DNA from: a virus
UHGV virus genome: UHGV-0134942
Direction: 5' to 3' (one strand)
Length of the DNA: 34,876 nucleotides
A model generated the notes under the pieces. It was given only the letters and a program-made list of their open reading frames with translations, ran no database searches and was not told where the DNA came from. The first letter of the stretch is position 1. Each line of letters starts with the position of its first letter. The translations under genes were made by a program, and so were the position numbers. Of this stretch, positions 194 through 34,876 are shown piece by piece.

Positions 194-349
194 TTACCTT
201 TCAGATTCGTAGGCTGTGAAGACAGTGACCTCCGTCTGGCCGGTTCGGATTCGTACCTCGCAGAGGTCTTTCCTCGTTACCAGTGCCGTCACAATGACGG
301 TTAAACAGATGACGATCAGAGCGATTAATATCGCTTTTTGCTGCTTCAT
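194..349 (-). CDS. hok: Hok/Gef-family type I toxin (51 aa), not in the supplied ORF track because it is under 60 aa
   Basis: Manual minus-strand translation gives MKQQKAILIALIVICLTVIVTALVTRKDLCEVRIRTGQTEVTVFTAYESER, which matches the Hok/Gef family (single TM helix, conserved RKDLCEV and TEVxVFTAYES motifs). AAGGAG Shine-Dalgarno lies 9 nt upstream of the ATG at 349. Confidence 0.8.
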   Translation of the reverse strand: MKQQKAILIALIVICLTVIVTALVTRKDLCEVRIRTGQTEVTVFTAYESER

Positions 350-407
350 AGCCTGCTTCTCCTTGACCTTTTGGTCGGTAAGAGGCTAATCTACGTATGC
401 TAAGCAT
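201..407 (-). CDS. Mok-like overlapping reading frame (modulator of killing) covering hok in another frame
   Basis: 68-aa ORF from the track overlaps the hok CDS out of frame and ends 7 nt downstream of the hok stop, as in hok/mok/sok loci. GAGG lies about 8 nt upstream of its ATG. The protein sequence itself is not diagnostic. Confidence 0.35.
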   Translation of the reverse strand: MLSIRRLASYRPKGQGEAGYEAAKSDINRSDRHLFNRHCDGTGNEERPLRGTNPNRPDGGHCLHSLRI

Positions 408-530
408 AGATATTGCCTCAGATTAATGTTAAGCGTCTTGCAGGACGCGTAATGTTATCTGGGGCTTTCTTCTATCTGCTTTTCGGGTAATGCCTGAAGC
501 AGATAGCCTCAAGCACCCGCAACGATTGTA

Positions 531-8540: not shown

Positions 8541-11500
8541 ATGAATGACGTTACAGTTGTCACATCGGTTACTTACCCATCACCCGAGTCGTTGGCTCTG
8601 GTGGCTGATGTGCAATACCACGAACCATATCTGTCAGCCGCGCTAAACCGAAAATTCAGGGGGATTGTTGACCCGGGATTTTATGCCGGTTTCTTACCTA
8701 AGCCTGGCGGTGGGATGAACCTGTTAATCACCTCAGTGGATGGTGATAAAACCGCAGGCGCGGCGTCGGTGGATATTGGTGAATTCTACCAGGTAACTAT
8801 TCAGCAACGTAAGGATATTTCTCTTGCACTTAGTGCAGGCAAGAAATATGCAATTGTGCTGAAGGGAAGATACCTCCTTGGAGAAGATACCTATCAGGTG
8901 AATACCGCGTCACATATTCATGCGGCTGAATTTGTTTCCAGAACCTATACCGATTCATATCAGTTAGGAGATGGGGAGCTGCTTGTTTGTACGGTGAATA
9001 TCCCTGCTGGTGTATCTGCCATTACCCAGGAGATGATTGATACATCCAAGCGTATCAACCGCACGATCGGCATTGATATTTCAGACTCTGTAACCAGTAC
9101 CAGAAGTGATGTTGCTGCGAGTTCGCTGGCAGTTAAAAAAGCCTACGATCTGGCTAAAAGCAAGTATACGGCGCAGGATGCAAGCACAACACAAAAGGGA
9201 TTAGTTCAGCTCAGTAGCGCAACTAACAGCGACAGCGAAACAATGGCGGCTACCCCTAAAGCCGTTAAGTCTGTAAAAGAGCTGGCTGATACCAAAGCGC
9301 CAATAGAAAGCCCGAGTCTGACAGGAACGCCAACCGCGCCGACGGCAGCGCAAGGTACAAACAGCACGCAGATCGCAAATACAGCCTTTGTTAAGGCAGC
9401 TATAACGGCACTTATCAACGGTGCACCTGGCACACTGGATACGCTTAAAGAAATAGCTGCTGCGATCAATAACGACCCGAATTTCAGCACAACTATCAAC
9501 AATGCTCTGGCTCTTAAAGCTCCTTTAGCAAGTCCTGCATTAACGGGAATACCTACTGCGCCTACCGCTGCACAGGGTACGAATAACACGCAGATTGCTA
9601 CGACCGCTTATGTAAGAGCTGCTATCTCTGCATTGGTCGGCTCATCACCTGAAGCTCTTGATACTCTGAATGAGCTTGCAGCAGCACTGGGCAATGACCC
9701 GAACTTTGCGACAACAATGACAAATGCGCTGGCAGGCAAACAGCCTCTGGATGCAACTTTAACCGCGCTCGCTGCCCTTGCGACTGGTGCAAACAAACTG
9801 CCTTATTTCACTGGTAAGGATACGGTAGCGCAGACTGATTTAACGTCAGTCGGTCGCGATATTCTGGCTAAAACAAGCACACTGGCCGTTATCCAATACC
9901 TTGGTTTAAGAGAACTCGGTACCAGCGGTGAAAAGATCCCCCTGTTGAGCACGGCTAACACATGGAGTGCGCGCCAGACTTTCAACGGCGGGATCACCGG
10001 GGCGCTGACAGGGAACGCCGACACCGCGACGAAATTGAAAACAGCACGCACGATTGGCGGTGTGGCATTTGATGGCTCGGCCAATATCAATCTTCCAGGT
10101 GTAAATACAACAGGTAACCAGAACACCACGGGGAATGCTGCTACCGCGACAAAACTTGCGACGGCAAGAAACATCAACGGTGTTAAGTTTGATGGCTCAG
10201 GCGATATCAACATTAATACATTGGTATCTCGTGGCCGAGTTACGGCGTTAAGCGGCTCTACTCAAGGCACTGCTGGCATTCAAATGTACGAGGCGTACAA
10301 CAATAGCTACCCGACCACGTATGGCAACGTATTGCACATGAAAGGTGCGAGTGCTGCTGGTGAGGGCGAGTTGCTTATTGGCTGGAGTGGTACGAGCGGT
10401 GCACATGCGCCAGTTTTCATTCGCTCCCGAAGAGATAACACAGATGCGGCATGGTCTGAGTGGGCACAGGTCTATACATCGAAAGACTCCATACCGGGCG
10501 TAAATACAACGGGCAACCAGAACACAACAGGAAATGCGGCGTCTGCCACGAAATTACAAACGGCAAGAACCATTGGTGGCGTTTCATTTAATGGTACCGC
10601 AAACATCGACCTGCCAGGTGTGAATAAAACAGGTAATCAGAGCACTACTGGCAATGCTGCAACTGCAACAAAACTGCAAACAGCACGCACAATAGGCGGC
10701 GTATCATTCGATGGCTCCGCCAATATCAATCTGCCGGGTGTAAACATTGCTGGTAACCAGAACACAACCGGTAATGCAGCTACGGCTACCAAATTGCTAA
10801 CAGCGCGTACCATTAATGGGGTTTCATTTGACGGTTCTGCGAATATTTCACTGTCACCAGCAAATATTGGTTGCCCGGCATCTCCTACTGGTTGGCTTGT
10901 AACAGGTGATAATGGAGCTTCAATAACAACAGAGCAATTAGTGACTCTGCTACGAGATAATGGTGCTTTTAATGCAAAGGCATGGATAGCGCGTTGTGCC
11001 TGGGCGTATGCAAATAGTGCATCCATACCAGACAGCGAAACAGGATGCGGCATTATTCCACTGGCTGGCGCAGTTATTGAGGTATTTAATAACGGCAGTA
11101 GCTCAAACAATTATACGATTCGTATAACAACGGCAACAACGACAGGTGTCTCTGGCGCACTCACTAATGCGGAGTTTGTCTATGTGTTTAACGGGACGAG
11201 CTATTCACCAGGATGGCGCAGAGCGTATAACACTAAAAACAAGCCTACTGCGGCTGATGTCGGAGCTTTACCACTATCTGGAGGAGCGTTAACTGGCGGA
11301 TTAACTGCTGCTGGCGAGATTATTTCCAAATCGGCGAATGGTCTGCGCATTGCCTACGGAAACTACGGATTCTTTATCCGAAACGATGGTTCAAACACAT
11401 ATTTCATGTTGACCGATTCGGATAACAGCCTAGGAACCTATAATAGGTTAAGGCCGCTTATCATTAACAATGCCAATGGTGCTGTTACGATCGGTAATGG

Positions 11501-12560: not shown

Positions 12561-13177
12561 TGGCATTCAGAATGAGTGAACAATCACGTACAGTAAAAAT
12601 TTATAACCTGCTGGCCGGAACTAATGAGTTTATTGGTGAAGATGACGCATATATTCCACCTCATACAGGGCTGCCAGCTAATTCTACAGATATCGCCCCA
12701 CCGGAAATTCCTACTGGCTTTGTGGCAGTTTTCAACAGTGAAAATGAATCGTGGAATATTGTTGAAGACCATCGTGGTAAAACGGTCTATGAGGTGGCAT
12801 CGGGGGACGCGTTGTTTATTTCTGAACCCGGACCGCTACCAGAGAATGTCACCTGGTTGTCGCCAGCAGGGGAGTATCAGAAGTGGGACGGCGTATCCTG
12901 GGTGAAGGATGAGGAAGCAGAAAAACTGTTTCGGATACGGGAAGCGGAAGAGAAAAAGGCAAGGTTGATCCAGGAGGCAACAGATAACATCGCAATTCTG
13001 CAGGACGCAGTTAATCTTGAAATAGCAACAAACGAGGAAAATTCACAACTGGACTCCTGGAGAAAATACAGAGTATTAGTGAGTCGAATTGATACCAGTA
13101 CAGCTCCGGATATCGTATGGCCAGAGCTGATGAATCAGGGTTATGTGCGGGAGGACGAGCAGATAACTTCAGACTGA
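12560..13177 (+). CDS. U: Tail fibre assembly chaperone (Tfa/U-like, 205 aa)
   Basis: ATG overlaps the S stop (TAATG); size and position typical of tail fibre assembly proteins; conserved W-KYR-like C-terminal segment ([14 protein letters not shown]). Confidence 0.75.
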
Positions 13178-13704
13178 AATTTAGTGATGAATGTTGAATC
13201 ATCAGGAATATCATGCAATACCAATGCATGAGCACCTATTGTGACATTGTTTCCTATACGCACTTTGCCACCAAGAATGGTGGCATTACAACCAATGGTC
13301 ACATTATCTCCTATAACAATATCCATGTCATTAAATTCCCCGCGAAGTCCAATAGTTACTCCGGGCTTAATTGAACAATTTTCACCGATTGTGACTTTGT
13401 GAGCGATAACAACGCCATTGAGATAAGATATGTCAAACCCTTTCCCTATATTTACCGTTAAGGGAACGGTTACATTGTATTTGTCAAGAATGAAGCGTTC
13501 TATTTTCCCTGCAACCTTTCGCCTGTATCCGCCTTTATCAAAAAGATATTTTGATATGCGCCACCAAAATAAATAACGAACTCTTCTATGTTTTATTGCG
13601 CGAACAATTGCTTTTCGCCAAGAGAAAGGACGCTCGCTACCAATTACTTCATAGTGAATACAGTCTTTAAGTTCATTAATAGTCATATTTCTATTGTTCA
13701 GCAT
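13141..13704 (-). CDS. Hexapeptide-repeat (left-handed beta-helix) acetyltransferase, AT-rich; possible moron (187 aa)
   Basis: Imperfect hexapeptide repeats ([16 protein letters not shown]…[34 protein letters not shown]). Markedly lower GC than the flanking phage genes. Converges on U and overlaps its 3' end by 37 bp. Confidence 0.7.
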
Positions 13705-13769: not shown

Positions 13770-14700
13770 GTCTGGCGGTTTTCGGTATTATCTGCCGGAA
13801 CCATGCCTCATCCAGCGGGTATTTGCTGCCTGGGTTGTCCGGTTTTTCGGTCACTCCCTCAGGCCTCCGATTCTGGTCACGGCGGGTTTGTTATTTTCCA
13901 GTGCGTCGGATGACCACTGCCGCAACTTCTGCACCATTTTTTGGGAGCGGGATTTCACTCCTACGCAACCTGCGCTTTTTGTGCAGCCTGTTTTGCGTGC
14001 TATCCCGGATTTTTGAGTTTCATTCTGCCTCCATGATCCTATCAGGGACGACACCAATCCACTTAAGCACGATGCCAAGACCATCAAGGAGCTGCGTCAG
14101 AGGCCCAGCACAATGTTCTGCTTGATCGGCATAGGGGGGAGCACAAGGGCTGCGCCCCTGCCACACCACCCGGCATGCGGGTCCGTACCGGGCTTCCTCG
14201 GCTTCTGACGCAATGTCCTGTCAAGAGTCATATCTTCTGGCTTTCCTTCTCGTTCGGCCCTTCGTCGGAGTCCTGACTACTACGGCCTCTGCTGACTTCT
14301 CGCTCCGTCTTACGACGTTGCCCTTTCAGGCATGAGGCGAGAACTCCCCAGGTAAGAACGCGATCCTTCCCCGCACAACCGTCGGATCTGCGCGACTTCG
14401 ACTTGACCACGAAAGCTTCGCAGTGATGTGCCTGCTCGCCTTGCTCCATCGCGCCTCATATCCGATTCTCGTTCATCGGCTCACGGGTTCATTCCGTGCT
14501 TCCTCCCCACGCCCGGTCGCCCTCACGCAGTTGCACTTCATTTCGCTCGCTGTGGTCAGCTCGCGGGAGGGCTTTCACCTCCAAGATCGCGCCCATGCTG
14601 GGCGCACACATCCTCCACGCTCTAAAGGACGTGGAGGATGTCAAGCAACATGACCGGTTGAGAAGTTACTTTGCATACCATTACCTCCTGACAACGTAGG
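13770..14700. other. ~0.9 kb GC-rich, strand-skewed block (pyrimidine-rich on +) without a convincing ORF; candidate structured RNA, long leader or decayed gene
   Basis: All six frames give only short overlapping Pro/Ser/Arg-rich ORFs of 60-120 aa. Contains perfect hairpins at 14589-14605, 14609-14640 and 14684-14703. Lies where P1 carries cin and the invertible C-segment. Confidence 0.4.
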
Positions 14701-15039: not shown

Positions 15040-15479
15040 TTGGCTGGGGTGTATGCGTTCTTGCGTTAGCCTTAGCCGATCGCTATTTGCTAAAACGCAA
15101 GGACATCACGCATTTAGAACTTGGTGATGTGGAAGTTAAACAGGGCTTCATCCGGGTGCCGTTCAAATACCGGTCTAAATTCCCGTTTTTGCGCGGCGCA
15201 ACGGTCAGATATTGGATCCGCGATGTTCAGAAGCCAACGACAGTGATTGAAGGCGAACAACGTTGTCTGACGTCGGCTGAACAGGGCGAAAACAGTGAAT
15301 GGTTGTACATACCCACTGAATATATGGGTAAAGGAGAACGGCTGTGGCATTTCAACGTCATGGTTACGCATGGTGACTCGTTCATTAACCCGTTGTATCG
15401 GATTTTCCCTGTTACTCAGCAAATCCGCAGAAGTTACGTAATAAATCTCGCACAGGATGTGTCAGATGACGAAAAATAA
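15036..15479 (+). CDS. lydB: LydB-like lysis regulator (antiholin-like, 147 aa)
   Basis: ATGA overlap with lydA; N-terminal hydrophobic segment. Name by synteny. Confidence 0.5.
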   Translation: MIGWGVCVLALALADRYLLKRKDITHLELGDVEVKQGFIRVPFKYRSKFPFLRGATVRYWIRDVQKPTTVIEGEQRCLTSAEQGENSEWLYIPTEYMGKGERLWHFNVMVTHGDSFINPLYRIFPVTQQIRRSYVINLAQDVSDDEK

Positions 15480-16068
15480 GTATGCAACGGTCGATTTTGA
15501 CCAGGTTAATGAAAAGGGGCTGAAATCCCTTATCGCGGCGATCAATAAAACCGGGGTTACGGTAATTGAGGTTGACTCCAGCAACCGCGCAACAACGAAA
15601 GATGGCGTTAAAGTTAAAACCGCAAAGCTGGTTCTTAACGACGGACAAATTCTTGCCATACAGGTAAACGATACTGGCGATATATCGTCTGTGAAACTGA
15701 ATGGAAAAGCTATTCCTAACGCTCAGTCGCCGGATATCAAGACGCTTGGTACCGTCATGGGACAGGCGGCCCGCAAAAACTCCGCAAAATTCCAGAAATC
15801 ACTGATCGCCAAAGCGAAGCGTGTTGCCAATCCGGTAGACAAGAAACCGGCAGTTAAATCCAACTTTCAGCGCCTGCAAGAAGCAAAACAGCGGAATGCT
15901 CAGGTGGTTGCCGCTTATAAGTCCGCGCAGAATTCGGTGTCTTTCAATCAACAGCAGATCACTGATTTGCGGGCGAAGCTGGATAAGGAGACAGGCCGAC
16001 TCAATAACGAAAAGGCCCGAAATGGCGAACTCAAACGCCGTCTTAAGCAACTGAAAGCAGGAAATTAA
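15457..16068 (+). CDS. hdf: Hdf-like protein (homologue of a DarA fragment, 203 aa)
   Basis: Shares a segment with the downstream 639-aa protein (…KNSAKFQ…, and GQILAIQVNDTGD versus GQTISILFHSPTAE). Position upstream of darA as in P1. Confidence 0.55.
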   Translation: MCQMTKNKYATVDFDQVNEKGLKSLIAAINKTGVTVIEVDSSNRATTKDGVKVKTAKLVLNDGQILAIQVNDTGDISSVKLNGKAIPNAQSPDIKTLGTVMGQAARKNSAKFQKSLIAKAKRVANPVDKKPAVKSNFQRLQEAKQRNAQVVAAYKSAQNSVSFNQQQITDLRAKLDKETGRLNNEKARNGELKRRLKQLKAGN

Positions 16069-17989: not shown

Positions 17990-18351
17990 CACTATCAGCT
18001 ATTGAGTTAATGGATCTCAGCGATAAGTTGGATGCTCTGATGTCCAAAGCGGCTACCGCGAGTGGTATGGAGTTGCTGGATATCAGCGATGAAATTGACC
18101 AGATCATGCAACAGATGGGGTACGGCGCGTCCGGCGGTGGTAGTGGCGAGGAAAAACAACCTTCGGAACATGATGGTGTGCCAAAACTGGTTGCTGATTT
18201 CCTGGCTGATAAATTCGTCGATCAGAGCACCGATGCATTTATCGGTACCTTGCAGGATTTGAGTCAATATGTTGGCACATACATCGACCTGGACCAGGTT
18301 AAACAGCACACGGCGGCATGGATAGCCGCCAACATTAAAGAGGCAGCATAA
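17986..18351 (+). CDS. ddrA: DdrA-like protein (121 aa, acidic)
   Basis: ATGA overlap with the darA stop; small acidic protein. Name by synteny. Confidence 0.45.
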   Translation: MTLSAIELMDLSDKLDALMSKAATASGMELLDISDEIDQIMQQMGYGASGGGSGEEKQPSEHDGVPKLVADFLADKFVDQSTDAFIGTLQDLSQYVGTYIDLDQVKQHTAAWIAANIKEAA

Positions 18352-18363
18352 GGCGTAACAGGG

Positions 18364-21351
18364 ATGAGCTTAAGCGATCAGGTGGTAATGGCCACCAGCA
18401 TAGAAACGCTGATCGAGCTGCTAAAGAACCTGCCCGATTATGGGCGGGTTTCGTATGTGGTGACAGCGAAGGGAGACGAGGTAAAAACAGCGTTTGATAT
18501 CGTCGATGCCTCAGCTCTTTTGGTATCCAATACTCTGGATGGGCAAATTAATCCTGACTATCCCCAGGAACTTCAACCGCGCGACCGGACCCGCGCATCC
18601 AGCCTTCTTCAGGTTAACCAGATATCCAAAGATTTGCGGCCTGCTCAGCTTACTGATTCCGGTTTATCCAGCCATGGCGCGCCGATAATTGGTGAGGACA
18701 ATGCCGTTGAGTCAGGTAATGGACGGACCATGGGGATCATCAAAGCCTATCAGGACGGCAATGCGGATCGGTATCGTGAGTACCTGATTGATCATGCGAC
18801 CGAATTCGGCATACGACCTGAAAAGGTTGAATCAATGACGGCTCCGGTACTGGTGCGCCGCCGGTTAACTAAGGTTGACCGCGTTCAGTTTGCCAAGGAC
18901 TCAAATATTTCTGATCTTCAGGAAATGGCAGCCAGTGAAAAGGCTTTTGTTGATGCCGACAGCATAACACCGGCGATGATGGCGCTTTTTAACCCGTCAG
19001 AAAGCGGAGATCTGCTTAGCCGCAGTAATGACGCGTTTATTCGCGGATTTATGACGCAAGTTGGTGCCACACAGGCGGCTGGCCTTGTAACTGAAGATGG
19101 GCGACCAACACGGCAACTTGTAGACCGTATACAAAACGCGATCTTTGCCAAGGCATATAAGGATGCGCGCCTGGTAAGGATGGTTGCAGAAGAACCTGAT
19201 CCGGATATGCGTAATGTTCTGACGGCGCTTAATGCGGCAGCCAATGATTTTGTCCAGATGCAGGCTTTATCAGGAGAAGCGCACAAGCAGGCTGTGACAA
19301 CTATTGTTGATGGCATTGAGACAGCGGATAGCCTCGATAAAAAGGCGCTGGCGGCATTGAAAGATGCGGTAGACCTGGTAAGGCAATCGAAGGAGTCAGG
19401 CCAGCATATTACCGATGTTATTGCTCAGGGGGATATGTTCAGCGAAACGGCCCCGGAAGTGAAAGCACTCGCGTTGTTCATCGTCGCGAATAACCGTAGC
19501 GCGAAGCGTATGGCCACCGCCTTTAAGTTGATGGCTCAACGTATCAATGATGAGTTACAGCACCAGGGCCAGGCGCTGGGGGATATGTTTGGCGGCGGCG
19601 ATGTGTCGTTACAGGATATCCTTCGCCAGGTGTCTCAGGAACTGGAAAACGAAGGCATGCAAGGGATATCCGGCGGTCTTTTCGAGTCCGTTTCCGGCGG
19701 TAGTTACAACGGTGTTGCTCCGTATACCAGTTTGCTATTACATCGGGCATCCGGCATCAAAGACATTATTCATCTGATCAGGCTGCTTTCCCGCACAGAT
19801 CCCCAGGATGAACAGCTTGTACAAGTGCTTGCGCATTTTGTTCGAATGCCTGTTGCCGACGTGAAAAAATGGTGCCGATTATTCGGTATCAGCAATTCGT
19901 TACTTCGCGGCTTGTTAAATCACGCATCCTCCCTTGGGCGCGATGGCTTTGACGAGATAGCGCAGGCGATAAAAAACGGAGATATGCCACCAGCTATTGA
20001 CTGGTTTTCCATTCGCCCAACCAGGGTGAAAGCATTCCTTAGCGCGGCGCATTCGGCATCACCATTGGCAGAAATGGTTCAGAGGTTGTCGCTCATATTC
20101 ACAGACCATACCGCGTTGGGTGATCTGACTCTGGACGAGATGAAAGAAGCCTCCATTCAGTGGGCCGATCAACAAAATGAGGTTAACTCAGACTTCTTGC
20201 CAGCATTCAGGAAGGCCGTTAGTAAAGCGGATGATGCCCGTGGAATTCTGAAGGCATTTAAGGCATTGCAAAGTCGTGTTAATAAACATGTCGGTGATAT
20301 CGATGGGGTAACGGCGGAAGGCCGGGATATCCTTCAAGAGCACGGCATAACGCCAGAGTTTATTGATGAGATCAGGACTGATATGCAGCGTGAGGTCGTA
20401 TCGTCCCTGCAAATCGTAGCCAGAGCGTTGGCGGATGCTAATCCGAAGAGTGCGGCCATTGTTAACCGGGTTATTGGTGATATTGAAGCATCGGAGGGCA
20501 TGGGGGCGCTGAAACTCTTCCTTTCGCGAGCGTTTAATCCTAACGGCAATATTCTCCCTGGCATTATTGGTGAGGCTAAAAAGTATGTCAGTGAAGAAGA
20601 ACTTGAGCAGCTTGACCAACTACTTAAGCGATTCTCATATAACCCGCAGACACGCTGGCAAATGAATCAGCGAAGTATGGGTTCGGTCCACGAGAAAGTG
20701 TTATCTGCCATGAACAGTGCGATCGCCAACTCATCCGTATCTGAAGAAAAAGCTCTTGAGTGGGCCGACTCTTTTATCACGGAAGAAGTGGAAGAAGCCC
20801 GCGCTGGACAGAATGGTGGGATAAACCTGCGCAAGGAACTTGCTGATATTTATCGCCTGACTGGCGGGAAAATATCGACCTTATCAAAGGTGGTTCACCA
20901 CCAGGGAAGGGCATATGCAAATCTAAATGGTGTTGTTGCTGTCAATTTGAACGATGAAAATGCAAGTGCACTGTGGCACGAGCTGGGTCATCATCTTGAG
21001 TACAGTAACCCCGGTTTGTTAGAGAAAGCCCGGTCATTCCTGAAGGCCAATGTTGAAGGGGGTAAGCCATCTTTCGTCAATATCGGTGGGCGTGGCAAGC
21101 CTGAATGGTGCTTCAGATCTCGATTGAGTAATATTTATATGGCGAAGGTATACCCGCCAGTCTCAGTGAGTAACTCCGGGAAAATTCGGCAGAAATCACC
21201 GACTATTTCCAAAACGTCAGCAACGGAAGTATTCTCTATGGCTCTTCAGTTGTATCATGACAAAGAGGCCGCTGCCGCATCACTGATGAATGGTGACGGA
21301 TTGCTGGAACTGTTATTAGGTGTGGCAAAGGAGCTAAATAATGCAGATTAA
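18364..21351 (+). CDS. ddrB: DdrB-like large protein of the Dar module (995 aa)
   Basis: Long ORF co-oriented with darA; name by synteny and size. Confidence 0.55.
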   Translation: MSLSDQVVMATSIETLIELLKNLPDYGRVSYVVTAKGDEVKTAFDIVDASALLVSNTLDGQINPDYPQELQPRDRTRASSLLQVNQISKDLRPAQLTDSGLSSHGAPIIGEDNAVESGNGRTMGIIKAYQDGNADRYREYLIDHATEFGIRPEKVESMTAPVLVRRRLTKVDRVQFAKDSNISDLQEMAASEKAFVDADSITPAMMALFNPSESGDLLSRSNDAFIRGFMTQVGATQAAGLVTEDGRPTRQLVDRIQNAIFAKAYKDARLVRMVAEEPDPDMRNVLTALNAAANDFVQMQALSGEAHKQAVTTIVDGIETADSLDKKALAALKDAVDLVRQSKESGQHITDVIAQGDMFSETAPEVKALALFIVANNRSAKRMATAFKLMAQRINDELQHQGQALGDMFGGGDVSLQDILRQVSQELENEGMQGISGGLFESVSGGSYNGVAPYTSLLLHRASGIKDIIHLIRLLSRTDPQDEQLVQVLAHFVRMPVADVKKWCRLFGISNSLLRGLLNHASSLGRDGFDEIAQAIKNGDMPPAIDWFSIRPTRVKAFLSAAHSASPLAEMVQRLSLIFTDHTALGDLTLDEMKEASIQWADQQNEVNSDFLPAFRKAVSKADDARGILKAFKALQSRVNKHVGDIDGVTAEGRDILQEHGITPEFIDEIRTDMQREVVSSLQIVARALADANPKSAAIVNRVIGDIEASEGMGALKLFLSRAFNPNGNILPGIIGEAKKYVSEEELEQLDQLLKRFSYNPQTRWQMNQRSMGSVHEKVLSAMNSAIANSSVSEEKALEWADSFITEEVEEARAGQNGGINLRKELADIYRLTGGKISTLSKVVHHQGRAYANLNGVVAVNLNDENASALWHELGHHLEYSNPGLLEKARSFLKANVEGGKPSFVNIGGRGKPEWCFRSRLSNIYMAKVYPPVSVSNSGKIRQKSPTISKTSATEVFSMALQLYHDKEAAAASLMNGDGLLELLLGVAKELNNAD

Positions 21352-26980: not shown

Positions 26981-29900
26981 ATGAACAAGCTATCTATGGG
27001 GGTGTTTCGCTGTTCAAGTGTCAGCGAAATATTGAAATACATTAGGGCAATAACATCTCACCGAGCGCCGATTAAATACGGCGTGGAAAAGGTGGAAGGC
27101 AAAAGCTATGACCGACTGCGCCGTGAGGCGAATCAGAAGGCGATAGATTTGCTTAATTCGCTGGTGGACGGCGCGACACTGACAGATGAACAGCGCCAGA
27201 TCCTGGCCGGGTACACTGGTGAAGGCGGCATTGGCGGGTCCGTCTCCGAATATTACACACCAAAGCCTATCGCTGAAGGTGTCTGGGAGATCATGAAGCT
27301 CTACGGCGCGGACGTAGGTAACACTCTGGAACCATCGGCGGGAACCGGCGTTTTTAATGAGACAAAACCGGTTGGTACGGTGATGACCGCGACTGAGATC
27401 AGCAGTGTTTCCGGTCGTATAAACCAGTTGTTACACCCGGAAGACAGCGTACAGATTTCCCCGTTCGAACAGCTGGCTATAAACACGCCTAACGATTCAT
27501 TCGACCATGTTGTGGGTAACGTTCCGTTCGGCGGTCGTGATAACACACGCAACATCGATAAGCCTTACGCAGAAGAAACGGACATGGGTTCTTACTTCAT
27601 GCTCCGCATGCTGGACAAGATAAAGCCAGGCGGATTCATGTGCGTGATTGTGCCGCCGTCCATTGTTTCAGGTTCAAACATGAAGCGGTTACGCCTGCGC
27701 CTATCACGGAAAGCTGAATTTCTTGGTGCCCACCGCTTGCCTACCGGTACTTTTGACGCAAACGGGACCAGTACGGTCGTTGACGTGGTGCTGATGCGCA
27801 AACATCCGGCGGAGATGGCTGAGAAAATCCCCCTGGTGGATGAAGGCACTCTTGAATCGGCAAATGTGCTTTGGCCAACGTTTATTTCTGGCAAGTGGTT
27901 TGAAAAGGACGGCCGCCGGTTTGTTCATGGCACTCAGGAGAAGGGATTTCAGGGGCGTATTGAGGTTCGTGCCGACGGGCAGATTGATAACCAGGCTCTT
28001 AAAGCGAAGCTGATTCATCGTTTCGAAAGTCGTATCGACTGGTCTTTGCTCGATATGGCTGAACCGTCACCGACCGCAGATGTTGTTGATGAAGGGGAAA
28101 TGCGCCTGATTAATGGCGTATGGCAAAAATATGCTGGTGGTCGCTGGATTGAAGCTGATGCCGGGAAGGAGCTGAAGATTGAGGTTGCCAGTTATGGCGC
28201 GGATAGCTGGGAGGCTCTTCAGCGTAACCTGACTACAACAGAAGGCCGTCTCGGTATGACATTTACCCAGATGGCAAATGTCCGCGATAAGTACACCACA
28301 TCAATCAGCGACGATATGGTGCAGCTGGTGGACTGGATTAACAGCCAGCCTGAAAAATACCGTGAACGCTTGTATCGTGGGGCGATGATTGGCCGGATGT
28401 TAATTGAATATCAGGATATGAAGGCCGCCGGGCATAGTGCTGAACAAATCGAACAGCAGCGCCTTTCTCTGGTATCCCGTTTGCAGGCAGAGATTGACCG
28501 TTTTGGTAACCCCGGTCGCGGTCCGATAGCGAAATTATCGGGGAGCGGTGCGCGCGCCTGGTTTGCTTTCCGTGGTGCAATTAAGCTGGATGGCACTATT
28601 TCTGACGAGCTGACAGGAAAACTGGTTACGCATGATTCCATCGCCAGTTATGACTCCACCAGCTATCAGGACACCCTGCGTTATCTCTACAGTGATCTCA
28701 CTCGCGATCCAATCCAGCTCGATGATTTCCGCCTTGCGTTTACCGGCGAACTGCCAGCCAGTGATGATGAGTTGCTTAATTTATTGGCCAGCACCCCTGG
28801 CATTGCGGTTTCACCGTATGGCGGGATTGTTCCGTTCGCCCGCGCCACCAGCGGCGACATTAACGAGATAGTGGCTCCAAAACAGGAATTCCTCGCCACG
28901 CTCCCCGACGGTCCAGTAAAGAACAACGTCCTTAATCAGCTGGCAGCGATCGAAGAGAAGCGCATCAAGACGCCAGCAGAGAATATCCGCTTTAAGCTCA
29001 ATAGCCGTTGGTTCGACCGTTCCGTCATTCTGGAGTTTTTGCAGGAAAACGGCTATCCGGATCTGCGCTATGTGCAGTCAGTGCAGCTGGAAGGCGACGA
29101 AATGGTTTCTGACACCTATCACGGTGGTGATGGTCTGTTCGTCGGGCACCGATACGGTGTCGTCCAGCGCAAGGATAAAGAAACAGGCGAGATCCGCTAC
29201 GAGTGGGACCGTAAATCAGGTGAAAACGCGACCGGGTTCCCGGCACAGCTGGAAAAGTATCTCAATGGTGCGCGTATCGGTGGCAAAGATAGCGCGACGG
29301 CGAACGGCTACCGCGAGCAGATGGCACTGCTTGAGGACCAGTTCAATAAGTGGATCAAGACGCACGATCGCTACGATGAGCTGGTTGCCAAATACAACGA
29401 TGTGTTCAATAGCAATATCCCGTATGAACACTCTGGCGATCCGCTTGGGTTGAAGGGATTAAGCGGTAAGCGCCAGCCATTTGATTACCAGAATAGCGAG
29501 GTGCGCCGACTGTCCGAAGATGGGCGCGGCATCCTGGGCTTCGGCACCGGGCTGGGTAAAACCACGACCGCGCTGGCGCTTGAGGCGTTCAACTATGAGA
29601 ACGGTCGCTCCACCCGTACTGCGTATGTAGTGCCTAAATCAGTGCTGGAAAACTGGTATTACGAAGCAAAAGAATTCCTGAGTGAAGAGGCATTCAGTAA
29701 CTACCTGTTCGTCGGTCTTGATGTGCTGATGGATGGCGATCAGATTCGCCAGGTGCCGGTGCTCGATGAGAACGGTAAACCTGTTCTTGGTACTGATGGC
29801 ACTCCAGTTATGCGCGATGCTCTTAAGCTGGCAGATGAAGCCACTATCACGGCGCGGATGAACGCGATCCCGCACTCAAATTACCGTGCAGTCGTGTTTA

Positions 29901-32900
29901 CCAAAGAACAATACGCCCGCATTCCGCTACGTGATGACACCGTAGATGAGCATGCACAGGATATGCTTTATGACTTCGTTGCCGCCGGGCGCGTAGCCAG
30001 CGCAATGGACTCCGACTCCCACCGCAAAGAGGCTGCGCGTCGCCGGGTATTGTCGGAGTATTCAGATACCGGCACCGAAAAAGCAGAGAAGTATCCGTAC
30101 TTTGAGGATATGGGCTTCGATAGTGTGATCGCTGACGAAGGTCACAACTACCGCAATAGCTATAAAAATGGTCGCGAAGCGTCACAACTGGCCTATCTGC
30201 CCACCAGCGCGGTGGCGCAATCGGCGCGAGATATGGCAATTAAAAACGCGTACCTGATGAAAAAGAATGGCGGGCGCGGGCCGGTTCTCCTGACTGCAAC
30301 GCCAGTCGTTAACACCCCGATCGATGCATACAACATGCTTTCTCATGTTCTGCCGAAGGAATACTGGCAGAAGATGGGGATCTACGGTCCTGATGACTTC
30401 GTTAAATTCTTCGGCAAGACCAGGCTGGAAACGGTACAGAAAATCAGCGGTGAAGTTGAAGAAAAAATGGCGCTGGTGGGCTTTGAAAACCTTGATGCGC
30501 TGCGCGGTATATTCCATCGCTGGGTAACGCTTAAAACGGCGGAAGACGTTAAGGATACCGTGGAGATCCCGGAGCTGGACGAACACCAGCAGGATGCACC
30601 ACTTACTGAAGAACAACTGGCGGCGTATGAAGAATTGCGTCAGCAGGCGGAAGCGGCGGCCAAAGCCAACAATGGCGTAACGACCTCGGTCAATGAAGAC
30701 GGCGTGATTGAGCACGAGAAAGCCCGTCCGATCTTCTCAATAATCAGGGATATGGACCGCGTATGTACTGACATGGACCTGTACTATCGCCGGATCACCT
30801 ATCGTTTCCTGCCGGAGTACGCCGATGCGGTGCAGCAGCTGGCGGACAGTTTGCCTAAACAAGCCACCAGCGAAGACGACGACAGTGATGATTCAATCAC
30901 GCAGCAATCGCAATACTCCCTGATAGATAAGGGCGAGTTTATTCAGTTGCAGGTTCCGGAAGCGTTCGAGCAGGAAGTGAATAAGCGCCTGGCCAGGTTT
31001 GGCATTGACGAACAGACCGTAACTCACCCCGTTACGCCCAAATACGCGAAGCTGATTGCCACGCTGAAGGAGTTTTTCCCGGAAGGTAAGCAAATCATCT
31101 TCACCGATGAAAAAACGCAGCACCAGAAGCTCAAGCGCATTATCTGCAATGCTCTTAACCTTGAACCTTCAAAGGTGGGGATACTGAATGCTCAGACGGT
31201 TGCCGAGGCAGGTAAAACCGGTAAGAAACTGAAAGCGGTTAAACCGCCGAAAGAGTTACCGGATGAACCAACAGATGCACAGATAGCGAAATACAACGAG
31301 CAAATGGCTCTGTATGACGCCTATATCGCGCAGCAAAATGAAATGTCGTTGGGCGGTCTGGAAAAGATTGCAGCCGACTTCCAGGAGGGCCGGACTCCGA
31401 TCATCATCTGCAACAAAAAGGCAGAGGTGGGTATCAACCTGCATCGAGGAACGACGGATATCCACCACCTGACGTTGCCGTGGACACCAGCCAGTATCGC
31501 ACAGCGTAACGGTCGCGGTGCCCGAGTTGGTTCCAACCGTGCAAGCGTTCGCGTTCACTACTACTGCGGCAAGGGGTCTTTCGATGAATACCGACTGAAG
31601 ACGCTGAAGCGTAAAGCAGGCTGGATCTCCGATATCCTCCGTTCAGATAAGTCAGAAATGGATAACGCCGACGCCAATGACATGATCGAAATGCAGATGT
31701 ATACCGCGAAGGATGACGGCGAACGTCTGGCAATGATGCAGGTTCAAATGGATAAGGCGAAAGCTGCGAAACGCGCTCGCCAGAAAGAACAGGCTACTAT
31801 CGACCTTCAGAACTACATCAAGGCGCAGCACGCAGCTGGCGAGGATGTGGAGGTACTTACCGCTGAATTAGAGCGAAGCAAAGCGGAACTTGAAAAGACC
31901 ACCGCCGAGGTAGCTAAATTCAAACAGGCGGCAATGGCCAAGGCAGCGGATAACGCAGACTGGAAGGCCCGCTGGGGGAGTGTCCATCACACAGACCGTA
32001 TGTTGTTAGCACAGTATCGCGCGTCGTTGAAAAGCGCCATTCAGCGCAAGGCTAATATCTCTCAGGCCATCTCCCGCTATGAGAAATTATTGAACCGTAC
32101 CCAGAAGGCCGCGACGGATATCAAACGCCTGCGCCCGCTGGTGGAGGATGCAATAAATAAAGGCATTCTGGATGTTGATCCTGATCTGGTTAACCATGCG
32201 AATGAGTTCCTTGTTATCGGCGATCGCTCATGGCGTGTAGGCCAATACTACGATTGTGCCGGTGATATCGTTCGCATTAAGTCGCTGGACTTCGACAGCC
32301 AGCGCGCAGACGTGGAGATCATCTTTACCTTCAAAGGCACCAAATCGGGTAACTGGGATGTGAAGACGCTGGATAAACAGGTTGATGTAACTCCCGATGA
32401 AGATGCTGTTATGCAGAAAATCAGTGGTGGCGTCTCCATCGCCGGGATTAACGACATCATTTCCTGTGACGATTTCTACCGTTTCCAGCAGCGCGGCATG
32501 ATCAAAATCACTGACTCATACGGCGTTCAGACTACAGAGTCAGGCTATAGCATTGATTTTGTTGGTACCTATACGGCCCCACTGAAGCATGCGGTTTACC
32601 CGGATCGCCGTGACGGCGCGCTGAAGTCGTCAATTGCAAAATGGGTGCTTGGTATGATGTCGGAAGGGAATAACCGCCAGATCCGTTCGGCAGAAACATT
32701 CCTGGTTGAATTGTTTGGCTCCAATTATGGCGATGTAATCGCGTCATACGGAGATACGCTATCCCCTGAAGCAATTCAGGAGAAAATAGCGGATGCGATC
32801 GCCAGAATGCCGGAAAAAACAAGCCAGGGGGCTACTCGTAACGGGGATTCTGAACTTGAAGTCACCAATGCCATTTTCGGTACCAATGAGTTCCGGGGGT

Positions 32901-33748
32901 CAGATTATGAGATCACCACAGCACAGTTTGGCACCATTGGCATTTACAGCAATAAAGCCGAGATCAAGCAGGCAATGGACGCAGCAAGCGCGCGCATCGC
33001 AGCAGAACGGGAAGCCAATCTGAATCATGCAGTCGCCGCACTGACTCAATCGTGGGTAACAGCAATCAGGGAGGCCGCCACCACAGGGAAAATCACACCT
33101 GCAATTGCGGATGTCGTAAACGACGGCTCTAAATTTATGGATGCCTATCAAATGGATGCGGTGCAGTTGCCATCAGCCTATGGCCAACTCAGCTATCGCA
33201 TGACCTACAACCTGGTATCAATGTTTTCCGACCTTGCCATCCTTGGGCTGGTGGATCTTAACGAGGTTACGCCGGAATTGCTCAGCATGCGCAAGAATCA
33301 TGTGGAGATATTGCAGAGAATTAACACGGTTCTTGCCGGGCGCACCGATGAAGAGAAACAGGCCGACGCTGATCGGATAAACCTGGCCCTTGGCAACATC
33401 ACGGAGGAAGAGATTGCCGCCAGAAACGAGAAACAAGAAGAGTTATCATCAATACAGGGTGATGCCACCAGCATAGCTCAGTCTCTTGGTCTGAATTATC
33501 GCGTATCCACCGCCGACCTGAAGATGATGTACGCACCAAAATTCGCCGCTGGCGAGGTATTTGGGCTTCAGGAAGCCTCAGGCATGAAAGGCGTTCTTTT
33601 CCGTGCGAAAGACGCAATCAAGGCGAAATTCGGCGCTCGCTGGCTGCCAGCGAAGGCGAAGAACAGCGATTTCCCGGGTAACTGGTGGATTATCGAGACA
33701 AAACACAACGTGGCGGACGTTCTGGCCGTCATCCAACAATACGCATAA
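26981..33748 (+). CDS. darB: DarB-like anti-restriction protein: N6-adenine methyltransferase fused to a helicase (2255 aa)
   Basis: Methyltransferase motif I (LEPSAGTGVF) and motif IV (VVGNVPFGG); helicase Walker A (GFGTGLGKTTTALAL), DEGH box (IADEGHNYRN), TATP (LLTATPVVNTP) and motif VI (QRNGRGARVG). Length matches P1 DarB as recalled. Confidence 0.85.
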   Translation: MNKLSMGVFRCSSVSEILKYIRAITSHRAPIKYGVEKVEGKSYDRLRREANQKAIDLLNSLVDGATLTDEQRQILAGYTGEGGIGGSVSEYYTPKPIAEGVWEIMKLYGADVGNTLEPSAGTGVFNETKPVGTVMTATEISSVSGRINQLLHPEDSVQISPFEQLAINTPNDSFDHVVGNVPFGGRDNTRNIDKPYAEETDMGSYFMLRMLDKIKPGGFMCVIVPPSIVSGSNMKRLRLRLSRKAEFLGAHRLPTGTFDANGTSTVVDVVLMRKHPAEMAEKIPLVDEGTLESANVLWPTFISGKWFEKDGRRFVHGTQEKGFQGRIEVRADGQIDNQALKAKLIHRFESRIDWSLLDMAEPSPTADVVDEGEMRLINGVWQKYAGGRWIEADAGKELKIEVASYGADSWEALQRNLTTTEGRLGMTFTQMANVRDKYTTSISDDMVQLVDWINSQPEKYRERLYRGAMIGRMLIEYQDMKAAGHSAEQIEQQRLSLVSRLQAEIDRFGNPGRGPIAKLSGSGARAWFAFRGAIKLDGTISDELTGKLVTHDSIASYDSTSYQDTLRYLYSDLTRDPIQLDDFRLAFTGELPASDDELLNLLASTPGIAVSPYGGIVPFARATSGDINEIVAPKQEFLATLPDGPVKNNVLNQLAAIEEKRIKTPAENIRFKLNSRWFDRSVILEFLQENGYPDLRYVQSVQLEGDEMVSDTYHGGDGLFVGHRYGVVQRKDKETGEIRYEWDRKSGENATGFPAQLEKYLNGARIGGKDSATANGYREQMALLEDQFNKWIKTHDRYDELVAKYNDVFNSNIPYEHSGDPLGLKGLSGKRQPFDYQNSEVRRLSEDGRGILGFGTGLGKTTTALALEAFNYENGRSTRTAYVVPKSVLENWYYEAKEFLSEEAFSNYLFVGLDVLMDGDQIRQVPVLDENGKPVLGTDGTPVMRDALKLADEATITARMNAIPHSNYRAVVFTKEQYARIPLRDDTVDEHAQDMLYDFVAAGRVASAMDSDSHRKEAARRRVLSEYSDTGTEKAEKYPYFEDMGFDSVIADEGHNYRNSYKNGREASQLAYLPTSAVAQSARDMAIKNAYLMKKNGGRGPVLLTATPVVNTPIDAYNMLSHVLPKEYWQKMGIYGPDDFVKFFGKTRLETVQKISGEVEEKMALVGFENLDALRGIFHRWVTLKTAEDVKDTVEIPELDEHQQDAPLTEEQLAAYEELRQQAEAAAKANNGVTTSVNEDGVIEHEKARPIFSIIRDMDRVCTDMDLYYRRITYRFLPEYADAVQQLADSLPKQATSEDDDSDDSITQQSQYSLIDKGEFIQLQVPEAFEQEVNKRLARFGIDEQTVTHPVTPKYAKLIATLKEFFPEGKQIIFTDEKTQHQKLKRIICNALNLEPSKVGILNAQTVAEAGKTGKKLKAVKPPKELPDEPTDAQIAKYNEQMALYDAYIAQQNEMSLGGLEKIAADFQEGRTPIIICNKKAEVGINLHRGTTDIHHLTLPWTPASIAQRNGRGARVGSNRASVRVHYYCGKGSFDEYRLKTLKRKAGWISDILRSDKSEMDNADANDMIEMQMYTAKDDGERLAMMQVQMDKAKAAKRARQKEQATIDLQNYIKAQHAAGEDVEVLTAELERSKAELEKTTAEVAKFKQAAMAKAADNADWKARWGSVHHTDRMLLAQYRASLKSAIQRKANISQAISRYEKLLNRTQKAATDIKRLRPLVEDAINKGILDVDPDLVNHANEFLVIGDRSWRVGQYYDCAGDIVRIKSLDFDSQRADVEIIFTFKGTKSGNWDVKTLDKQVDVTPDEDAVMQKISGGVSIAGINDIISCDDFYRFQQRGMIKITDSYGVQTTESGYSIDFVGTYTAPLKHAVYPDRRDGALKSSIAKWVLGMMSEGNNRQIRSAETFLVELFGSNYGDVIASYGDTLSPEAIQEKIADAIARMPEKTSQGATRNGDSELEVTNAIFGTNEFRGSDYEITTAQFGTIGIYSNKAEIKQAMDAASARIAAEREANLNHAVAALTQSWVTAIREAATTGKITPAIADVVNDGSKFMDAYQMDAVQLPSAYGQLSYRMTYNLVSMFSDLAILGLVDLNEVTPELLSMRKNHVEILQRINTVLAGRTDEEKQADADRINLALGNITEEEIAARNEKQEELSSIQGDATSIAQSLGLNYRVSTADLKMMYAPKFAAGEVFGLQEASGMKGVLFRAKDAIKAKFGARWLPAKAKNSDFPGNWWIIETKHNVADVLAVIQQYA

Positions 33749-33781
33749 CAGGAGCGCCCGGTTCGCCGGGCGTCGCATAAT

Positions 33782-34222
33782 ATGGCCACACTATCTGATA
33801 CAATAAAACCGAATAAAACATATCTTGAGGCGGTACTCCGTACAGCGTTGTTAGGAAAGACAGAAGACGAATACGTTGATTTCTTCCTGTCAGGGCTACG
33901 CGGGCGATTACTGAAAAATCCCCGCCTGTACCGCAGCTATGGTCCATACTGGCCGGAAATTAAAAAATTATTACTGGAGCGCGGTTATGGTAATTTCGGT
34001 CGTCTCGTTGACCGTGACGTTCGCAAAATTTACCGTTATGACCGCCCGGCGCTAACACTCATAGCCGCGACGCTCTACAGCCAGGAGCGTTTTGATAATG
34101 GTCAGATATACTCAGCCTGGCATTTACTGCCAGTGCCTGAAGAAGTTGACGACCAGGACTATGAGTTTGAGTCTTACGATTTGGAAGTTGAAGCCTTGGC
34201 ACAGGCTGGAGAGAAAACTTGA
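33782..34222 (+). CDS. ulx: Hypothetical protein downstream of darB (146 aa)
   Basis: Track ORF; name by synteny only. Confidence 0.4.
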   Translation: MATLSDTIKPNKTYLEAVLRTALLGKTEDEYVDFFLSGLRGRLLKNPRLYRSYGPYWPEIKKLLLERGYGNFGRLVDRDVRKIYRYDRPALTLIAATLYSQERFDNGQIYSAWHLLPVPEEVDDQDYEFESYDLEVEALAQAGEKT

Positions 34223-34467
34223 AAAAGCGATACTACACAGTAAAGCATGGGACGCTACGAGCATTACAAGAGTTTGCTGATAAGCATAACGTTGAGGTGC
34301 GCAGGGAAGGGGGAAGTAAAGCTCTGCGCATGTACCGTCCGGACGGGAAATGGCGTACGGTCGTCGATTTCAAAACTAACAGCGTTCCCCAGGGCGTCCG
34401 CGACCGGGCATTCGAAGAATGGGAGCAGATCATCATAGATAACGCATTGCTCCTGAATGCTGATTAA
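34219..34467 (+). CDS. lxc: Small protein (82 aa), Lxc-like by position
   Basis: ATGA overlap with the upstream gene; name by synteny only. Confidence 0.4.
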   Translation: MKKRYYTVKHGTLRALQEFADKHNVEVRREGGSKALRMYRPDGKWRTVVDFKTNSVPQGVRDRAFEEWEQIIIDNALLLNAD

Positions 34468-34475
34468 ATCTTTGG

Positions 34476-34500
34476 CTATGCCTGGCTAAGCCAGGCATAG
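34476..34500. terminator. Perfect 11-bp palindrome between convergent genes (terminator-like)
   Basis: CTATGCCTGGC / TAA / GCCAGGCATAG; no strong U-tract on either strand. Confidence 0.45.
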
Positions 34501-34504
34501 GAAT

Positions 34505-34876
34505 TTACACAGTATCAATGTGTCTGCTAAGGAATCTCCCGAACTGATTTGTTGACCCAAAATAGTTAGGATAAGCCTTTTTAAGAGATTTAATGTTGTT
34601 AGTGGCAAGCAGCACCGCAATTAATACTTCAGGATCCGCATCATCCTTATTAAGTTCCTGGAGGGCTTGTTCCGATTCTTTTTTCCTAAAAGGTTTCACA
34701 GAAACAAGAAACTTTCCAGTATCCTTGCCATTTTTTGTTATGGCGTTTCTCATCCTCACCAAAAAGAATCCATTATGGTTTTTGGGCAGGCTTTTCTTTA
34801 GGTTTGCATCTGATGTCAGCTTCATTGCAAATGTATATGTACTTAATTTTGAGCGAACAGATAAAGCCTCCTCCAA
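34505..34876 (-). CDS. C-terminal part of an AT-rich gene of unknown function; 5' end lies beyond the window
   Basis: Open minus-strand frame to the window edge; low GC; converges on lxc, where P1 would carry co-oriented mod/res. Confidence 0.45.
   Translation of the reverse strand: MEEALSVRSKLSTYTFAMKLTSDANLKKSLPKNHNGFFLVRMRNAITKNGKDTGKFLVSVKPFRKKESEQALQELNKDDADPEVLIAVLLATNNIKSLKKAYPNYFGSTNQFGRFLSRHIDTV

Follow-up and report, generated by a model that had tools for sequence, protein, structure and literature searches.

The partial open reading frame at the end of the window, by which is meant the whole 34,876-nucleotide stretch of virus genome UHGV-0134942 analysed here, is identified by its translation as the 3' end (codons 251–373) of capRel-SJ46, and this copy of the gene is most probably a promoterless 3' pseudogene remnant of an inactivated defence gene. 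The latter reading is preferred because all public contigs with 100% identity to the window show capRel split by ISEcp1, and because the window ends on exactly the TTG codon from which gene callers start the remnant. An interruption of the window's own copy by ISEcp1, just past the last base and thus read from the identical contigs, is accordingly regarded with good confidence. Since capRel-SJ46 is already a known gene, identifying the partial reading frame adds no new biology; the interval in which it lies, between lxc and mat, is occupied by different cargos in different P1-like elements.

The reading frame lies on the minus strand at positions 34505–34876 and consists of 123 codons followed by a TAA stop (34505–34507), remaining open to the final base of the window. 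Its G+C content of 38.2% is below that of darB-ulx-lxc (52.0%) and of the entire window (49.6%), in agreement with the preliminary description, which had noted an AT-rich partial gene on the opposite strand. It converges on lxc (82 aa; 34219–34467, plus strand, from the list of reading frames), whose product is named Lxc or modulator protein in SJ46, P1, P7 and RCS47; lxc ends with TAA, is the final conserved backbone gene ahead of the variable slot and forms the left anchor of that slot, its stop (34467) being separated from the convergent reading frame by 37 nt.

Searching the 123 residues against Pfam returned no family, including no methylase or ResIII match, and the fragment was instead identified through a PDB sequence search and through DNA identity. 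All 123 residues are identical to residues 251–373 of PDB entries 7ZTB_A and 9ERV_A (E 6e-76), and a chance reading frame is ruled out because this identity to a crystallised protein extends over the entire fragment. In Salmonella phage SJ46 the same sequence forms the 3' part of gp058, annotated as a 'RelA/SpoT family protein' of 373 aa, the full product of which is identical to chain A of 7ZTB at 373 of 373 residues. At the nucleotide level, positions 34200–34876 of the window are 100% identical to SJ46 and to about 20 P1-like plasmids from E. coli, Salmonella and Klebsiella. PADLOC, one of the checks proposed at the outset, gave a PDC-S33 match both for the 123-aa fragment (E 7.9e-13) and for the full SJ46 protein (E 7e-87). 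The preliminary description had recognised no motif in the C-terminal residues, as Pfam did not either; this is explained by the RelA_SpoT model covering only residues 79–193 of the full SJ46 protein, the antitoxin domain having no Pfam model. Over the region available, homology places the fragment in the CapRel subfamily of fused toxSAS proteins as the SJ46 allele, and exactly the same 123-aa protein is recorded on 25 contigs.

CapRel-SJ46 is a 373-aa single-chain fused toxSAS toxin-antitoxin of experimentally proven anti-phage function, which protects 10- to 1,000-fold against T2, T4, T6, RB69 and SECphi27 (PMC9712102). Its toxSYNTH part, residues 1–272, is toxic alone and is rescued in trans by residues 273–373; through the YXXY motif (Y352, Y355), with V338, L339, A341 and A351 also in the interface, the C-terminal pseudo-zinc-finger domain is docked at the toxin's ATP site, and CapRel becomes toxic constitutively when Y352A or Y355A is introduced (PMC9712102). 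Direct binding of Gp57, the SECphi27 major capsid protein, to the C-terminal domain requires L280 and L307, L280Q/P and L307A abolishing or reducing the binding, and the bound capsid protein lifts autoinhibition, which leads to tRNA pyrophosphorylation and a block of translation (PMC9712102). A second, unrelated trigger, Gp54 of Bas11, contacts residues 270–279 and 314–316 as well as the pseudo-zinc-finger domain in a crystal structure (PMC11578894). In an intact CapRel, toxSYNTH, a RelA/SpoT-type pyrophosphokinase, is kept shut by the pseudo-zinc-finger domain, the YXXY motif blocking the ATP site, until a phage trigger, whether a SECphi27-type major capsid protein or Bas11 Gp54, holds the C-terminal domain off the active site; the released enzyme then pyrophosphorylates tRNAs, translation comes to a halt and the infection is aborted.

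The antitoxin and phage-sensor region, comprising anchor-1, the pseudo-zinc-finger domain and anchor-2 (residues 273–373), corresponds to positions 34508–34810 on the minus strand when the translation is laid over the published domain limits (PMC9712102). Within it, the neutralisation motif Y352-P-N-Y355 occupies 34562–34573 (minus strand) and translates to YPNY, while the codons of the two sensor residues L307 (34706–34708) and L280 (34787–34789), both of which translate to L, delimit a stretch at 34706–34789 on the same strand. L280, L307, V338, L339, A341, A351, Y352, Y355 and the helix 270–279 are all present in the window's translation, which thus contains the C-terminal antitoxin region with its YXXY motif and interface residues. 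Because all the named functional residues lie within the fragment, the window shows the sensor/antitoxin end of CapRel and not the catalytic end. The N-terminal toxSYNTH part, with R79, R116, the G-loop Y155 and EXQ[IL]RT, lies beyond the window; it is present and fused in SJ46 and in plasmid pWP5-S18-ESBL-08_2.

The boundary between backbone and cargo was located at 34468–34475, homology to P1-type elements with other cargo ending directly past the lxc stop. In Megablast comparisons, matches to P1-like phages without CapRel end at query positions 264–275, equivalent to 34463–34474 of the window, all other P1-like phages matching only up to 5–8 nt beyond the lxc stop; for P1 itself, nucleotide homology ends at about 34472–34474. 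SJ46 and P1 are collinear at 98.3% identity until 5–6 nt past the lxc stop and resume from the mat stop codon, and the junctions of 10 elements diverge starting at the lxc stop codon. In SJ46 the interval between lxc and mat measures 1,266–1,271 bp and holds the hairpin described below, capRel and the upstream region, capRel having the orientation of mat and lying downstream of it, whereas the same interval spans 6.28 kb in P1 (mod with IS5, then res) and 5.08 kb in P7. Judged from these alignments, the AT-rich 1.27-kb capRel cassette is an exact replacement of the mod-res of P1 and P7, from the lxc stop to the mat stop. The co-oriented mod and res that the preliminary description had placed after lxc in P1 were found there and in P7 as well, and its argument that the gene in the window cannot be a co-oriented mod is borne out, the reading frame being on the opposite strand and homology to P1 and P7 ending 5–6 nt past the lxc stop; the reading frame does not belong to type III mod/res. 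As a separate observation outside the window, locus L001 contains at 10539–10566 (minus strand) an 11/12 sigma-70-like match, TTAACA-16-TATAAT, which lies 112 nt ahead of the capRel ATG, overlaps the mat stop and has a second hairpin, ATGGGTATG...CATACCCAT, after it. As a consensus match that straddles the junction of backbone and cargo, it could be the native promoter employed in the CapRel papers. The 3' end of mat is only about 80–90% conserved between cassette types.

Between lxc and capRel lies a 25-nt perfect palindrome (34476–34500), whose 12-nt arms CTATGCCTGGCT and AGCCAGGCATAG flank a single A. Transcribed from either strand, it folds into a stem of 11 bp closed by a 3-nt loop, so that the perfect palindrome of 11 bp originally reported at this place was described accurately. 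Compared with dinucleotide shuffles, the fold reaches −21.5 kcal/mol on the plus strand (z −3.5) and −23.3 kcal/mol on the minus strand (z −4.3), with 0 of 200 shuffles folding equally well for the latter. The stem of an intrinsic terminator is present; a T-run follows it on neither strand, and the palindrome was not among the calls of a consensus terminator scan, the sole terminator-like match in 33700–34876 being a chance-level one inside the reading frame (34726–34745, plus strand). The palindrome belongs to the capRel cassette and is missing from P1. It probably serves as a two-way transcript-end hairpin for the convergent lxc and capRel, and may still stabilise or end transcripts despite the missing T-run.

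The lxc-mat interval was taken from 14 further elements and its cargo proteins were scanned, which together with the plasmid collection revealed at least nine states of the slot among approximately 699 lxc-bearing P1-like plasmids in PLSDB: besides CapRel-SJ46, the slot is empty or holds at least seven other cargos. Type III mod-res is found in P1, P7, phi456 and 813R1, nothing (39 bp) in RCS47 and pO111_2, and CapRel-SJ46 in SJ46 and pWP5-S18-ESBL-08_2. A second CapRel allele of 375 aa, 74% identical, occupies the slot of p266917_2_02, and damaged forms of that allele are present in 673R5 (L003, split reading frame) and pE148-2 (L012, ISKpn26 insertion). Further cargos are a 316-aa PIN_12 protein with a weak PADLOC PDC-S34 match in JL22 (L008, 8330–9280), a 346-aa DUF2971 protein matching PADLOC PDC-S31 in MH422554 (L010, 8321–9361), an AraC-type regulator with an EAL-domain protein in Ro157c2YLVW (L009, 8307–9881), and a KilAC antirepressor with an Icd-like module in pLH10-b-1-B and RHB44-C13. 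With the exception of type III mod-res, whose junction in P1 and P7 has no obvious hairpin, each cassette type opens with its own, different perfect hairpin past the lxc stop, as seen in the first 70 nt of L001–L010.

The frequencies of these states were estimated by matching 600-bp junction queries against the same set of about 699 plasmids and counting records with at least 80% coverage. The AraC/EAL junction was the most frequent (140 records), followed by DUF2971 (87), type III mod (67), the second CapRel allele (52), the empty slot (31), PIN (23) and CapRel-SJ46 (22), with some 277 records carrying other cargo that was sampled through four examples; the PIN_12, DUF2971 and AraC/EAL cassettes together account for about 250 of the 699 plasmids. 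The preliminary description had expected variable, probably defensive cargo in place of mod/res, and the gene has indeed turned out to be capRel-SJ46, a proven anti-phage gene in a swappable slot. Its further suggestion of a defence hotspot is supported with one caveat: the slot is variable and both CapRel and mod-res occur in it, but for some occupants (KilAC/Icd-like, AraC/EAL) a defensive role is not evident. CapRel, type III R-M, dGTPase and PrrC are listed in a 2025 preprint among the defence systems of P1-like phage-plasmids, with no position given; in a literature search no explicit description of an lxc-mat hotspot was found, the phage-plasmid papers mentioning defence systems without their position.

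No record of the phage, plasmid or E. coli genome collections exceeds 99.2% identity to the window across its final 10 kb. Window-identical contigs were therefore sought in an assembly index by looking up two proteins in exactly the window's form, DarB (2255 aa) and the 123-aa product, and the contigs L019/L025, L021, L027, L028 and L029 match the window at 100.000% identity across 10,372–17,896 bases, up to position 34876. Every one of these continues past 34876 as capRel codons 250 to 183, and in all of them an IS1380-family transposase adjoins the 123-aa reading frame. In L019, the capRel frame breaks at codons 181–183, at the window-equivalent position 35086, which is 210 bp past the window end. 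The insert in this contig extends from about 18107 to 20658 (2,552 bp), with the target overlap GTTGTAC, and is flanked by a TTGTA/GTTGTA duplication. It begins with the IRL CCTAGATTCTACGT, which deviates from the IRR consensus at two bases, in keeping with an IRL, and which co-occurs as a string with ISEcp1 in eight papers; the exact IRR ACGTGGAATTTAGG is found 1,656 bp from the IRL end. The insert encodes a transposase of 420 aa (NCBIfam transpos_IS1380, NF033539, E 2e-98), and the 897 bp of passenger DNA beyond the IRR carry a 213-aa MBL-fold/flavorubredoxin-like gene, whose protein is very common (at least 1000 contigs). By its transposase, inverted repeats, target duplication and passenger, the insert is assigned to ISEcp1 (IS1380 family) as a transposition unit.

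Beyond the insert follow an N-terminal capRel piece of 184 codons and then mat. The window-equivalent positions 35080–35110 read ...GTTGTACTTCGATTTTAGTTTTACTCC... in the intact SJ46 and ...GTTGTACCTAGATTCTACGT... in the disrupted form. The break lies in E180-V-Q-L-R-T185, a stretch that we take to be the EXQ[IL]RT catalytic motif of RelA/SpoT synthetases. Since the IS end supplies an in-frame stop and the next ATG, GTG or TTG is the TTG of codon 251, gene callers report a reading frame of 123 aa, and the last bases of the window are exactly this TTG (34874–34876), the start of the remnant call. The identical capRel split is present in plasmid pFUJ80155-1. In all window-identical contigs the toxin-antitoxin fusion is lost through the ISEcp1 break, and the capRel of the window is consequently a family member by descent and very probably not one as a working protein. 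Such a remnant would have no toxin activity and give no protection; that it is unexpressed is inferred only from the missing upstream promoter or ATG. Extending the sequence, as had been recommended at the outset, was the right test, the relatives yielding beyond 34876 both capRel-SJ46 and its split by ISEcp1.

Two of the other explanations concern the nature of the gene itself. Its presence in several P1-like plasmids might suggest an ordinary backbone gene of the P1 family, conserved at this position, which was the very case that the preliminary description had named as refuting it; the slot survey rejects this reading, capRel-SJ46 being restricted to 22 of the approximately 699 plasmids with lxc and, in the phage collection, to 1 of some 14 distinct P1-like phages, while in RCS47 and pO111_2 no cargo separates lxc from mat, and it retains a negligible probability. 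Nor is capRel credibly a housekeeping small alarmone synthetase that makes (p)ppGpp and has no immune role, even though several records are named 'GTP pyrophosphokinase' or '(p)ppGpp synthetase' and residues ~59–195 are weakly similar to RelP/RelQ/YjbM structures (E 1e-7 to 2e-4). Residues 251–373, those within the window, have no counterpart in RelP/RelQ, which distinguishes the protein from stand-alone synthetases, and the published biochemistry on the identical protein, namely tRNA pyrophosphorylation, translation block and phage defence, refutes this interpretation virtually completely (PMC9712102).

The remaining explanations accept capRel-SJ46 and concern this copy of it. The source could carry the intact, functional 373-aa gene there, as an active capsid-sensing abortive-infection system, and a priori an intact gene is far commoner: the 373-aa protein is recorded for at least 1000 contigs and the remnant for 25, 21 of the 22 CapRel-SJ46 cassettes in PLSDB are contiguous, and pWP5-S18-ESBL-08_2, which is 99.3% identical to the window, has a full-length capRel that is 100% identical. 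However, the ISEcp1 split occurs in each contig matching the window perfectly over 10–18 kb, identity to the window is only 98.5–99.3% in elements whose capRel is intact or damaged in another way, none of the 24 contigs read that carry the window's exact DarB has a 373-aa call, and the window end coincides with the start codon of the remnant's gene call, so that an intact gene is considered improbable. Still less probable, and indeed very unlikely, is expression of the C-terminal remnant, for instance by read-through or with translation starting at the TTG of codon 251; its product would then neutralise an intact CapRel in trans as a free antitoxin, or sequester capsid protein as a decoy. An artificially expressed 273–373 fragment does neutralise the toxin domain in trans (PMC9712102), and the remnant keeps the complete antitoxin region and the hairpin; against this, its start codon is TTG, a search of both strands of 33700–34876 found no sigma-70-like promoter, and it is the IRL end of ISEcp1 that lies upstream of the remnant. 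The outward promoter of ISEcp1 sits at the end opposite the IRL.

The promoterless remnant left by ISEcp1 is not the only inactivated capRel. The same 123-aa call also arises in L023 from a Tn3-family/blaTEM insertion near codon 130, in L022 from the nonsense mutation E202* and in L024 from a 14-bp frameshift deletion (nt 361–374), the backbones of these three being 98.5–98.9% identical to the window. As their lesions yield an identical call, the idea that the 123-aa call marks the ISEcp1 event exclusively was rejected. A preference of lesions for the toxin half was rejected as well, because a look-up via the C-terminal remnant finds only lesions upstream of codon 251. CapRel in the slot has thus suffered four independent lesions in the SJ46 allele, and in the second allele an IS insertion (ISKpn26) and a split reading frame. 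A broader proposal, put forward tentatively and held to be rather less than likely, is that the lxc-mat interval constitutes a dedicated exchange slot whose cassettes bring their own hairpins, that the DUF2971, PIN_12 and AraC/EAL cassettes could be new anti-phage or lysogeny-control modules, and that the repeated inactivation of CapRel possibly reflects a system that is costly to, or self-triggered by, its P1-type carrier.

CapRel-SJ46 is among the best-understood bacterial immune sensors, and the route from opposite strand, AT-richness and lost P1 synteny to a swapped-in defence cargo has been validated by its identification. The map of the lxc-mat interval shows, for about 700 P1-like plasmids, a cargo site with multiple states, three of them abundant cassettes that could be screened for anti-phage activity. 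The capRel broken by ISEcp1 illustrates that defence calls made from fragments can overstate the immune repertoire of a genome, and the natural loss-of-function alleles can be used to ask whether the system costs its carrier.

Two further features were observed elsewhere in the window. Group II intron matches at the Rfam gathering level are located on the minus strand at 14257–14338 (D1D4-1, 46.8 bits) and 14356–14526 (D1D4-3, 96.9 bits), between a cin-like reading frame (13141–13704) and the reading frame 15457–16068; there is no reading frame of at least 150 aa at these matches and hence no intact reverse transcriptase, so that they may represent an intron remnant. The sok antitoxin RNA of Rfam is matched over its full length at 344–518 (minus strand; 114 bits, against a gathering threshold of 59), which points to an addiction module of the hok/sok type at the beginning of the window.

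Among known systems, the closest to the gene in the window is CapRel-SJ46 itself (SJ46 gp058; PDB 7ZTB and 9ERV; Zhang et al., Nature 2022, 2024), with which it shares all 123 residues, the nucleotides from lxc through the hairpin to the 3' end of the gene and the lxc-mat position. SJ46 differs in having an intact capRel of 373 codons, as opposed to the ISEcp1 unit at codons 181–183 of the window-identical contigs, and its backbone diverges by about 1% from that of the window although the cassette end is identical. In the same backbone, darB (26981–33748) is one intact 2255-aa reading frame in the window and two CDSs in the SJ46 record (48880–53361 and 53542–55632). The second CapRel allele (p266917_2_02 WP_000526244.1; vB_EcoM-673R5), commoner than CapRel-SJ46 in PLSDB by the junction counts above, is similar in fused architecture, slot, orientation, the YPNY motif and the anchor-2 residues, but belongs to a different cassette with a different hairpin, and at 74% amino acid identity its substitutions are spread throughout the alignment, including the C-terminal sensor region. 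For comparison, CapRel-Ebc is 70% identical to CapRel-SJ46 overall and 47% in the C-terminal region, and has a different phage specificity (PMC9712102). In P1 and P7, whose backbone is the same, the lxc-mat interval is taken up by the EcoP1I/EcoP7I mod-res, which like CapRel defends the lysogen against incoming phages; in contrast to capRel, to which it has no sequence relationship, it consists of two genes co-oriented with lxc over 5.1 kb (6.3 kb with IS5 in P1) and cleaves DNA, whereas CapRel shuts off translation by abortive infection. The two-gene toxSAS systems, PhRel/ATphRel of mycobacteriophage Phrann and FaRel2/ATfaRel2, likewise possess a RelA/SpoT-type toxin that pyrophosphorylates tRNA; in these, toxin and antitoxin are separate polypeptides, whereas they are fused in an intact capRel, and for CapRel the antitoxin part has been shown to sense its trigger directly.
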